A DNA stretch of 28,555 bases, from positions 1 through 28,555 of the forward strand of contig DASQTT010000121.1 of assembly GCA_035641735.1 (NCBI GenBank), in the 5' to 3' direction. Source of the DNA: Actinomycetota bacterium (GTDB taxonomy: Bacteria > Actinomycetota > UBA4738 > HRBIN12). The notes beneath the pieces were generated by a model. It made no database searches, was not told where the DNA came from, and saw nothing but the letters and a program-made list of their open reading frames with translations. Position 1 is the first letter of the stretch, and each line of letters begins with the position of its first letter. Positions 26,347 to 28,555 of the stretch are shown in pieces. The position numbers and the translations under genes are program-made.

Positions 26347-27323
26347 TGGACCTCGCCGACGTCGGCGCGGCGATCCGGATCGCGTTCATCTACTTCACGA
26401 TCCTCTACCTCACGGGGCTCGGAGGGCTCTTCAGCGAGCGCTCCGGGATCGTGAACATCGGCCTCGAGGGGCTGATGGTGATCGGGACCGTCACCGGCGC
26501 CGCCGGGGCCGAGATCTTCGCCGGTGCGGCGCCCGAGGGCCTCGGGTGGGGCGTCGGCGGCGTCGTGCTCGGCCTGCTCTTCGGGGCGCTCTGCGGGGCG
26601 CTGTTCGCGGGCGTCCACGCCCTCGCCACGATCACGTTCCGCGTCGACCACATCGTCTCGGGGGTGGTGATCAACCTGGCGGCGATCGGCCTGGCGCGAT
26701 TCCTCTCCTTCGTGATCTTCGAGCAGGCGACGCAGTCGGATCCGGGCGGACCTCATCTCCCGCGGCTCGACATCCCGCTCCTGTCCGACATCCCGGAGGT
26801 GGGACGGGCCTTCACCAGCCTTTCGCCGGTCGTGCTGTTCGCCGCGTTCCTCGTCTTCCCCGTGTGGTTCGTGCTCTACCGGACGCGATGGGGGCTGCGG
26901 CTCCGCTCGGCGGGCGAGAACCCCGAGGCCACGCGGTCCCTCGGCGTGGGCGTGTCGGCGTTGCGCTGGCAGGGCGTGCTCCTCTCGGGCGCGCTCGCGG
27001 GACTGTCCGGCGCGTTCCTCTCGGTCGAGGTCGTGGGCAATTGGCGGGAGGGCCAGACGCTCGGGCTCGGCTTCATCGCGCTCGCCGCGCTGATCCTGTC
27101 GAACTGGAACCCGCGTCGCCTGATCTTCGCGACGTTCCTGTTCGGCTTCGCGCTGGCGATCCCGCTGCGGTTCCGGCACGCCCCGATCATCGAGGAGATC
27201 CCGCCGCAGCTGATCAGCGCGATCCCGTACATCGTCACGATCATCGCGATCGCGGGGTTCGTGGGGCGCGTCCGGCCGCCTGCGGCGGCCGGACGCGCCT
27301 ACGAGGGGGCCGGCGGGACCTAG
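26346..27323 (+). CDS. Nucleoside ABC transporter permease 2
   Basis: GGLFSERSGIVNIGLEG.M, GLRLRSAGENPEA, GFIALAALI..NWNP, IPYIVTI. Confidence 0.92.
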   Translation: MDLADVGAAIRIAFIYFTILYLTGLGGLFSERSGIVNIGLEGLMVIGTVTGAAGAEIFAGAAPEGLGWGVGGVVLGLLFGALCGALFAGVHALATITFRVDHIVSGVVINLAAIGLARFLSFVIFEQATQSDPGGPHLPRLDIPLLSDIPEVGRAFTSLSPVVLFAAFLVFPVWFVLYRTRWGLRLRSAGENPEATRSLGVGVSALRWQGVLLSGALAGLSGAFLSVEVVGNWREGQTLGLGFIALAALILSNWNPRRLIFATFLFGFALAIPLRFRHAPIIEEIPPQLISAIPYIVTIIAIAGFVGRVRPPAAAGRAYEGAGGT

Positions 27324-27946
27324 ACGTCGGTCCCGTGGAGCCGGTCCCCGAAGTCGCCGAGGCCCGGCAGGATGAAGCCCACGTCGTTCAGCCGGCGATC
27401 GAGCGCCCCGGCCACGATCGGCACCTCGGGGTGATCCGCCTCGAGCCTCGCCACGCCCTCCGGAGCGGCGACGACGCACACGAACGAGATCGACGTCGGG
27501 TTCGCGTGGGTCTTCACGTGCGTGATCGCCGCGGTCCCGGAGCCGCCGGTCGCGAGCATCGGGTCGAGCACGAGCGCCCGCCGGCCCTCCATCGGCGGGA
27601 GCTTGGCGTAGTAGTCGCGCGGCTCTAGGGTCTCCTCGTCGCGCTCGAGGCCGAGGTACCCGACGACGGTGTCGGGGTAGAGGTCCGTCGCGGCGTCCAG
27701 CAGGCCGAGCCCGGCGCGCAGGACCGGTATCGCCACGAGGGGTTCGGCGATCCGGAAACCCTTCGCCTCCTCGAGCGGCGTGTCGATCGTGACGCGCTCG
27801 GTCATCAGGTCGCGGGTGGCCTCGACCACGAGAAGCCAGCCAAGCCGGCGCGTCAGCGTGCGGAACTCGGCCGGCCCCGTGTCGCGCTGCCGCAGGCGAG
27901 ACAGGAGGTCCTCGGCGAGCGGGTGTTCCAGCACCGTCAGGGGCAC
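27320..27946 (-). CDS. upp: Uracil phosphoribosyltransferase
   Basis: PVLRAGLG, GLERDEETL, VLDPMLATGGS, GFILPGLGDFGDRL.GT. Confidence 0.96.
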   Translation of the reverse strand: MPLTVLEHPLAEDLLSRLRQRDTGPAEFRTLTRRLGWLLVVEATRDLMTERVTIDTPLEEAKGFRIAEPLVAIPVLRAGLGLLDAATDLYPDTVVGYLGLERDEETLEPRDYYAKLPPMEGRRALVLDPMLATGGSGTAAITHVKTHANPTSISFVCVVAAPEGVARLEADHPEVPIVAGALDRRLNDVGFILPGLGDFGDRLHGTDV

Positions 27947-27964
27947 CGCGGCATCCTAGCCCTG

Positions 27965-27994
27965 TTGACACGGCCGATGCCCCGCCGTCACGAT
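27965..27994 (+). promoter_or_regulatory. Housekeeping-type promoter for the aro leader
   Basis: TTGACA (27965-27970), 18-nt spacer, CACGAT (27989-27994); the leader ATG follows 8 nt later (leaderless geometry). Confidence 0.7.
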
Positions 27995-28002
27995 GGGCGC
28001 CG

Positions 28003-28056
28003 ATGCGGTGGTTCTCCGGCGACGGGTTCACCTACTTCGGGCGGCGTCCGGGGTAG
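28003..28056 (+). CDS. Aromatic-rich attenuator leader peptide MRWFSGDGFTYFGRRPG
   Basis: 17 codons with 1 Trp, 3 Phe and 1 Tyr, directly upstream of DAHP synthase; its 3' half overlaps alternative hairpins. Confidence 0.8.
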   Translation: MRWFSGDGFTYFGRRPG

Positions 28057-28116
28057 CCGCCTGCAGCCGAGCGAGCACAGGGGCCCCGGGCGCAAACACC
28101 CGGGGCGTTTCGCGTT
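28032..28116 (+). promoter_or_regulatory. Attenuator RNA: 1:2 pause, 2:3 antiterminator and 3:4 terminator helices
   Basis: 1:2 CTACTTCGGG (28032-41) / TCCGGGGTAG (28047-56). 2:3 CGTCCGGGG (28045-53) / CCCCGGGCG (28084-92). 3:4 GCCCCGGG (28083-90) / CCCGGGGC (28099-106), followed by GTTTCGCGTT. Confidence 0.75.
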
Positions 28117-28149
28117 CCGGGGTCAGAGGGGCGCCGGAGGAGGACGTCG

Positions 28150-28555
28150 ATGGTCGTCGTGATGAAAGCGGGCGCCACCGAGGCGGACATCGAGGCCGTC
28201 TCGGAGCGGGTGCGCGGCCTCGGCGGCGAGGCGTTCGTCTCCCGCGGCCAGGTCCACACCATCATCGGGCTCGTCGGCGACACCGACCGGTTCCAGGCGA
28301 TCGAGTGGAAGCAGATGCCCGGCGTCGACCACGTCATCCGGATCGGCAAGCCCTACAAGATGGTGGCGCGCGACCTCCATCCGGAGACGACCACGGTGAA
28401 GGTCGGGACGACGCCCGTCGGCCGGGACACGTTCACGCTGATCGCCGGCCCGTGCGCCCTGGAGGACGAGGAGCAGGCGATGGCGGCGGTCGAGGCGTCG
28501 CAGGCGGCCGGCGCGACGATCCTCCGAGGAGACGTCTACAAGCCGCGGACGTCTC
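28150..28555 (+). CDS. aroF: Type I-beta DAHP synthase with N-terminal regulatory domain (5' part only)
   Basis: MVVVMK.GAT..DIEAV...V...G.....SRG...TIIGLVGD, GVDHVIRIGKPYK, IAGPCA.E, KPRTS. GGAGGAGG SD. Confidence 0.9.
   Translation, partial: MVVVMKAGATEADIEAVSERVRGLGGEAFVSRGQVHTIIGLVGDTDRFQAIEWKQMPGVDHVIRIGKPYKMVARDLHPETTTVKVGTTPVGRDTFTLIAGPCALEDEEQAMAAVEASQAAGATILRGDVYKPRTS

Follow-up and report, generated by a model that had tools for sequence, protein, structure and literature searches.

The DNA analysed here (referred to as the window) is a stretch of 28,555 nucleotides, contig DASQTT010000121.1 of assembly GCA_035641735.1 from an uncultured actinobacterium. The element of interest lies at its right-hand end, on the forward strand, directly upstream of aroF, the gene for 3-deoxy-D-arabino-heptulosonate 7-phosphate (DAHP) synthase, whose product controls carbon entry into the shikimate pathway. 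A −35-like hexamer, TTGACA (27965–27970), is followed after an 18-nt spacer by a −10-like hexamer, CACGAT (27989–27994), which is identical to TATAAT at three of six positions and ends 8 nt before the ATG of a small open reading frame (ORF). This leader ORF, MRWFSGDGFTYFGRRPG (28003–28056), has 17 codons and a TAG stop (28054–28056), and no Shine-Dalgarno sequence precedes its ATG at 28003. Five of the 17 residues are aromatic (W3, F4, F9, Y11 and F12; codons at 28009–28014, 28027–28029 and 28033–28038) and together they cover Trp, Phe and Tyr. The window holds 18 ATG-started ORFs of 14–20 codons on its two strands, and only the leader ORF has more than one aromatic residue. Further downstream are the Shine-Dalgarno sequence of aroF, GGAGGAGG (28136–28143), and the 5′ part of aroF itself (ATG at 28150, cut by the window end at 28555), encoding a DAHP synthase with an N-terminal ferredoxin-like (FXD) domain.

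Four RNA segments of this leader can pair in mutually exclusive ways. Segment 1 (28018–28042), the 5′ strand of the anti-antiterminator, lies inside the leader ORF and consists of an outer part (28018–28020 and 28023–28027) and a core (28032–28042); it was delimited from the minimum free energy (MFE) fold, the RNAalifold consensus, counts of compensatory pairs and a cognate-duplex test. Segment 2 (28044–28068) takes in the last leader codons, the stop and the 12 nt after the stop, and it can pair either with segment 1 (via 28046–28056, 28059–28063 and 28066–28068) or with segment 3 (via 28044–28054 and post-stop bases). Segment 3 (28077–28093), made up of pre-terminator bases and the terminator 5′ arm, pairs with segment 2 or segment 4. 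The core of the 1:2 helix joins 28032–28042 to 28046–28056 in 11 bp, with an outer helix between 28018–28027 and 28059–28068; the 2:3 antiterminator joins 28044–28054 to 28083–28093 in 11 contiguous bp, which is unusually long; and the 3:4 terminator hairpin joins 28083–28090 to 28099–28106 in eight G-C pairs and, with the weak U-tract GUUUCGCGUU (28107–28116) behind it, occupies 28083–28116. Computed energies in the window are −31.3 kcal/mol for the long 1:2 hairpin, −30.9 for 2:3 and −20.3 for 3:4. An initial annotation, made from the letters of the window, had placed the promoter, leader ORF and helices at or within 1 nt of these positions. Its 2:3 pairing (28045–28053 with 28084–28092) is contained in the longer one given here, and the helices that it drew are all present; its segments 1 and 2 were drawn too short, missing the outer helix and the extension of 2:3 into the post-stop region.

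We consider it highly probable that this element is a classical ribosome-mediated (leader-peptide) transcription attenuator controlling aroF. Its anatomy is that of the trpL type: a short ORF, predicted to be translated, stands between promoter and gene, the ORF is enriched in codons for end products of the pathway, the 5′ strand of the 1:2 helix lies within the ORF and the antiterminator shares the terminator 5′ arm. In the mechanism that we propose, the promoter 8 nt before the ATG would give a leaderless transcript opening with the 17-codon ORF. When aromatic tRNAs are charged, the ribosome would reach the UAG and cover segment 2, leaving segment 3 free; the hairpin at 28083–28106 would then form and transcription would stop before aroF. 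With no ribosome on the leader, the long 1:2 hairpin should form and the outcome would again be termination. When Phe-, Tyr- or Trp-tRNA is scarce, the ribosome would stall in the aromatic cluster (in the family consensus W-F-F-Y, codons −10 to −7 counting back from the stop codon; in the window, F9, T10 and Y11), so that segment 1 is masked and segment 2 is not. Segment 2 would then pair with the terminator 5′ arm, and RNA polymerase would read through into aroF.

The strongest arguments come from comparison with related genomes. Orthologues of aroF were found in 38 of 41 relatives. The first 30 aroF upstream regions examined all contain an ATG-started ORF of 16–21 codons rich in W, F and Y, ending 20–30 nt before a near-invariant hairpin, GACCCCGGGC-loop-GCCCGGGGUY. 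A covariance model, R1, was built from the upstream regions of the relatives (alignment A1), and a later alignment, A3, holds 82 distinct rows. R1 gave one strong match per genome; at E ≤ 1e-3 this held for 105 of the 151 genomes searched in the order, and at E ≤ 1e-6 for 120 of 151 in the class. By family, the class search gave matches in 106/115 genomes of f1, 3/3 of f2, 2/2 of f3, 1/1 of f5, 6/6 of f6, 0/10 of f7 and 1/13 of f8. Three unpublished genomes (G029, G110 and G156) are counted here but are left out of the alignments and the sequence-level claims. Every aligned match with downstream sequence lies 9–75 nt upstream of an orthologue of aroF encoding the FXD-type enzyme. The element appears to travel with the orthologous aroF, because in the three genomes of f7 and f8 that were checked (G030, G031 and G036) the best DAHP synthase match is only 35–43% identical, and G037 (L028), the sole f8 genome whose orthologue reaches 59%, carries the leader. 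Judged from these alignments, the leader is a conserved RNA family that extends through a whole class of uncultured soil bacteria (at least six families), shows covariation and is strictly linked to aroF.

Two metagenome-assembled genomes (MAGs) each carry two strong copies of the element, G107 (L048 and L075) and G114 (L050 and L065). In G114, the first copy is near-identical to one of those in G107, and the second is like a leader (L029) from another family. Paralogous regulons were considered for these two genomes and set aside; mixed bins are the probable explanation, since in both cases the second copy is very like a leader found in a different genome.

At the peptide level, the 84 homologous matches reduce to 73 distinct peptides of 16–19 residues, always started by ATG and closed by an in-frame stop, and their length varies only by whole codons. 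The consensus is M-Q-R-F-F-G-x-W-F-F-Y-[F/G]-G-x-x-P-[A/G/E]-stop. Each leader has between three and seven aromatic residues (median five); all 73 peptides contain both Phe and Tyr, and 57 of them contain Trp. Counted from the stop, the frequency of aromatic residues is 0.55 at position −14 and 0.62 at −13, about 0.70 at −10, 0.93–0.94 at −9, 0.67–0.68 at −8 and 0.84–0.86 at −7. The order and the codons of the aromatics vary while their aromatic identity stays (WFFYF, WYFSF, RWYFA, WWYFA, RFTYD), and because identity survives changes of order, the comparison argues for selection acting on the aromatic codons as such. Conservation nearer the C-terminus (G at −5, P at −2) tracks the RNA: residue −3 may be R, S, C, G or D, and its codon keeps NGC or GAC, within the GCCCGG pairing block.

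In alignment A3, all three helices show compensatory changes. The structure of the terminator state (outer helix, 1:2 and terminator) has 94.6% of its cells paired across the 82 rows, as against 35–57% when the 3′ partners are slid, and double changes occur at nine of its pairs, a value that none of 500 column shuffles reached. The terminator stem is 99.9% paired, with an exchange of A-U for G-C at its base in 14 sequences. For the antiterminator, the columns are 98.5% paired and only 19–71% when slid; at columns 79:138, G-C is replaced by A-U in ten sequences, which couples a position within a leader codon to the base that follows the terminator 5′ arm. The lower antiterminator helix, between the bases just 3′ of the stop and those just 5′ of the terminator, occurs in five compensating forms (GUC-A-CCUG/CAGG-GAC, GUCCUU/AAGGAC, GUCCG/CGGAC, GUCGC/GCGAC and CCUC/GAGG), with matching changes at the foot of the terminator stem (GAC...GUC versus GGC...GCC). 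Both in this lower helix and in the outer 1:2 helix, cognate strands form duplexes of higher stability than non-cognate strands do, and in each case none of 5000 permutations reached the cognate mean. The distinct compensating variants are a stronger argument than these permutation statistics. An alignment of aroF upstream regions had been suggested in the initial annotation as a check of its proposal, and it bears the proposal out, with aromatic codons conserved and helices covarying.

The position of the aromatic codons was evaluated by folding 81 leaders in silico, as transcripts truncated just before segment 4 and with ribosome-covered RNA made unpairable. The ribosome footprint was assumed to reach 12 nt beyond the first base of the codon in the A site, and the result depends on this assumed edge. 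The terminator 5′ arm is sequestered with a probability of 0.91–0.93 when any of codons −10 to −7, the most aromatic positions, occupies the A site; the value is 0.50 at codon −6 and 0.26–0.44 from −5 through the stop. Codon placement in the model is thus of the trpL type, in that a stall at the aromatic cluster frees segment 2 and a ribosome at the stop covers it. Masking segment 1, likewise foreseen in the initial annotation, favours the antiterminator in this simulation when the ribosome stands at the aromatic cluster. The idea of an attenuator with aromatic regulatory codons and mutually exclusive 1:2, 2:3 and 3:4 helices is therefore upheld on three counts: the ORF is conserved, the helices are compensated and the simulated stall favours the antiterminator.

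The promoter is also conserved in its position. A pattern TTGnnn-N17-19-nAnnnT was found upstream of the leader ATG in 79 of 81 distinct relatives and in 7 of 1620 shuffles, with TTGnnn kept at the position equivalent to that in the window. In the 79 relatives with the pattern, the −10 element ends 8–11 nt before the leader ATG (8–10 nt in 78). Because the promoter pattern ends so close to the ATG, the leader transcript probably starts at the AUG or no more than about 3 nt from it, i.e. it would be leaderless or have a 5′ untranslated region of 1–3 nt. A leaderless start had been suspected from the window, and the abutment of promoter and ATG in the relatives agrees with it.

Some relatives have lost parts of the leader. 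In G089 (L192:1-178), which belongs to the same family and to a genus of 1.3–1.6 Mb genomes, the conserved promoter, here TTGCCA-N17-GACAAT, ends 8 nt before the ATG of aroF itself. The aroF upstream region of G089 has no leader ORF, hairpin or Shine-Dalgarno sequence, and R1 matched none of the three genomes of the genus. The aroF mRNA in this genus thus appears to be leaderless and unattenuated, and the arrangement supports the predicted promoter assignment. In G104 (L190), a deletion about 110 nt before aroF has removed the aromatic stretch of the leader (ATGGCCCCGCGTAG...), and segment 2 is kept along with the terminator and the bases just before it; this is likely a constitutive-antiterminator variant, to judge from the retained segments. 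In G045 (L191), a deletion has taken out the leader ORF together with segment 2, and a CCCCGGG...CCCGGGG hairpin with a UUUCUU tail comes directly after the promoter, about 90 nt before aroF.

Several observations weigh against the attenuator as drawn. The hairpin of G045 is awkward: if it were a strong terminator that works unconditionally, it should stop transcription constitutively in this arrangement, which fits poorly with the retention of the hairpin there. Both the window (GUUUCGCGUU) and its genus have a poor U-tract, and T runs reach no more than 2–3 in 59 of the 82 sequences. A generic scan for sigma-70 promoters and terminators made no call at the leader, because an actinobacterial −10 and a weak U-tract fall below the thresholds of the scanner. 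The whole-leader fold of the window is no more stable than shuffled sequence (z = −1.26). In the truncated-transcript simulation, the state without a ribosome gives an intermediate antiterminator probability (family mean 0.58), and the window's own truncated transcript favours the antiterminator even without a ribosome. When full-length transcripts were folded at equilibrium with ribosome masks, the terminator won at most stall positions; full-length equilibrium was judged unsuited to a decision that is taken during transcription and was replaced by the truncated transcripts, and the proposed switch therefore depends on co-transcriptional kinetics. The window leader is itself atypical, with GGG (Gly) at 28024–28026 where 59% of the relatives carry a conserved TGG (Trp); its only Trp is at codon 3 (TGG, 28009–28011). 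The shuffle and permutation tests overstate significance, since the sequences are related and not independent. Finally, the one metatranscriptome with shared sequence (5% of words) yielded contigs below 95% identity that cover parts of upp, the neighbouring gene, and aroF, with no coverage of the leader.

Some of these points would fit a leader that depends on its peptide and acts by other means than intrinsic termination, for example by Rho-dependent termination, by mRNA stability (a 5′ stabilising hairpin) or by access to the aroF ribosome-binding site. The weak U-tract of the window's genus speaks for such a leader, the retention of a hairpin after the promoter in G045 means that the hairpin can be tolerable or useful without an antiterminator, and in the MFE fold of the full leader the region 3′ of the hairpin pairs with upstream sequence. 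However, more distant families have proper U-tails, GGGGUUUUUC or GGGGUUUUUU, it is specifically the 5′ arm of the hairpin that the antiterminator ties up and covaries with, and aroF has a strong Shine-Dalgarno sequence of its own 30 nt past the hairpin, outside the conserved helices. We regard such a non-intrinsic output as unlikely.

A structured RNA working without translation (a riboswitch, or a protein-binding leader like the TRAP or T-box systems), in which the ORF is incidental, is very unlikely. It would account for much of the C-terminal peptide conservation, which is explained by RNA constraints on the codon of residue −3 and on Pro −2 in the GCCCGG block. It would not account for an ATG, an in-frame stop and a length of 16–19 codons kept in 84 of 84 homologues, for aromatics that persist through changes of codon and order and coincide with the stall window favouring the antiterminator, or for a promoter positioned for leaderless translation; nor is there an Rfam match, T-box and known leaders included. 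The conserved ORF and its recognisable motif W-F-F-Y-F-G might alternatively mark a functional micropeptide, such as a precursor peptide, lying next to aroF by coincidence. This seems extremely improbable given that residues beyond the aromatic cluster vary freely or follow the RNA pairing, that the neighbours are upp and aroF with no partner gene for modification or export, and that the ORF is strictly linked to aroF, terminator and antiterminator. A chance origin of ORF and hairpins in GC-rich intergenic DNA, which folds strongly anyway as the z score above illustrates, is already refuted by the comparative data, that is, by conservation in at least six families with covariation and strict aroF linkage, and the leader is the sole aromatic-rich small ORF in the window. 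The ribosome-mediated attenuator remains the reading that we prefer.

The leader region is bounded on its other side by a divergent neighbour outside the element, upp for uracil phosphoribosyltransferase (27320–27946, minus strand; PF14681). The full aroF is present on a longer metagenome contig, next to an upp identical to that of the window, and it encodes 339 amino acids with the domains PF18152 (FXD) and PF00793; a direct domain scan of the orthologue at L188:331-1356 found the same two domains. The aroF product is therefore a class I-beta DAHP synthase with a ferredoxin-like (FXD) regulatory domain, the type to which it had been assigned initially. In G007, the genome of this orthologue, an ORF of 198 amino acids without a Pfam match begins 46 nt 3′ of aroF (L188:1402-1998, plus strand) and may be co-transcribed with it; a convergent gene for a Zincin_2 metallopeptidase comes next. 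The window itself derives from a MAG that is 83% complete, and in a search of sequencing runs near-identical DNA was found only in soil and rhizosphere metagenomes.

Aromatic leaders also precede genes for FXD-type DAHP synthases in other lineages. Among 80 loci of such lineages, a W/F/Y-rich upstream ORF was present at 30 on the sense strand and at 10 on the antisense control, and R1 matched only one locus, L083, in full. Streptosporangiaceae and Actinomadura sp. WMMA1423 (L086, L087, L090 and L091) have a different leader family, MRQQFWFWFGYRPGSRTVACQTLR and relatives, in which, as in the window, a W/F/Y-rich ORF (MRQQFWFWFGYRPG...) is followed by a GC hairpin, here with a U-tail, before the same type of enzyme. 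Short W/F/Y-rich ORFs ahead of a GC hairpin were likewise seen in Geobacterales (L102, L126, L148 and L150; e.g. ...FYFWYGFYFRPS...), in Syntrophaceae-like genomes (L106, L117, L131 and L138; e.g. ...FWFSTYYFYG..CPSLRR) and in Clostridia (L121, L141 and L157; e.g. MKLNGFYFYGYYFFEPIS), and aromatic upstream ORFs occur in Solirubrobacterales-like MAGs (L123 and L147) and in a Gemmatimonadaceae MAG (L130). Further peptide examples among these loci are ...FWFSTYYFYGQVCPSLRR and ...YARYYAWRFS. Their peptide and RNA sequences are unrelated to those of the window's family, and they probably arose independently or have changed too far for kinship to be recognised.

A wider proposal may be made from these observations, which we hold tentatively and consider rather doubtful. 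It states that a single leaderless 17-codon leader would serve as a three-input sensor, in which a shortage of any one of Phe-, Tyr- or Trp-tRNA relieves termination; that this would add a Trp input not known from the FXD allosteric domain; and that the leader would be one of many that evolved independently with genes for FXD-type DAHP synthases across several phyla, a general rule that has not been catalogued.

The attenuator proposed here would explain, in concrete and testable terms, how a large high-GC lineage of uncultured soil bacteria controls carbon entry into the shikimate pathway, and alignment A3 and model R1 can be used to annotate the leader in well over 100 genomes. Its mixed W/F/Y cluster lends itself to asking whether a single attenuator integrates several amino acids, and the deletion variants in G089, G045 and G104 allow the part played by each segment to be compared directly. 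None of this alters how attenuation itself is understood.

In a cmscan of 27800–28300 against Rfam at E ≤ 10, only sub-threshold chance matches to the hairpin were obtained, and the region matched neither a T-box nor any leader of the Trp, Phe, His, Leu or Thr type. A comparative study of actinobacterial amino-acid leaders in 2005 (Seliverstov) gave none for Phe or Tyr genes (PMC1262725), and the 2010 survey of premature terminators by Naville and Gautheret does not mention aro genes. For leaders of DAHP synthase genes in other groups, Geobacter included, our literature search found only the work on Corynebacterium glutamicum. The leader described here is a new, well-conserved representative of a known type of regulator; the attenuation principle is textbook knowledge, and we found no report of this conserved version and no entry for it in Rfam.

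The closest known system is aroR-aroF of C. glutamicum, also an actinobacterium, where a short leader ORF with mixed aromatic regulatory codons precedes a DAHP synthase gene. The AroF enzyme of C. glutamicum is of a different DAHP-synthase subclass, without an FXD domain. Its Phe-Tyr-Phe leader, aroR, was predicted from RNA-seq (Mentz et al. 2013, PMC4046766), and it responds to limitation of Phe and not of Tyr (Neshat et al. 2014, as summarised in PMC11802643). In view of these publications, the suggestion in the initial annotation that no such leader was known for an actinobacterial DAHP synthase was too strong. Ribosome stalling raises transcription of the aroF operon in C. glutamicum, and the same is proposed for the window leader. 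The motif is Phe-Tyr-Phe in aroR, F-T-Y-F in the window and W-F-F-Y-F in the family. Unlike the family described here, the C. glutamicum motif has no Trp in the published form, and according to PMC11802643, Phe limitation alone is effective there. The comparison of the two uses the published motif and the linkage to aroF.

The enterobacterial trpL-trpE and pheL-pheA systems (the Yanofsky model) share with the window leader the regulatory codons in segment 1, the stop beside segment 2, the 2:3 antiterminator and the 3:4 hairpin, in the window a predicted terminator. Whereas the trpL and pheL leaders are devoted to a single amino acid and have an ORF led by a Shine-Dalgarno sequence and a canonical U-tract, the window leader mixes codons for three aromatic amino acids, has a probably leaderless ORF and a weak U-tract, and would act on the entry enzyme of the common pathway, which in E. 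coli is under the TyrR and TrpR repressors.

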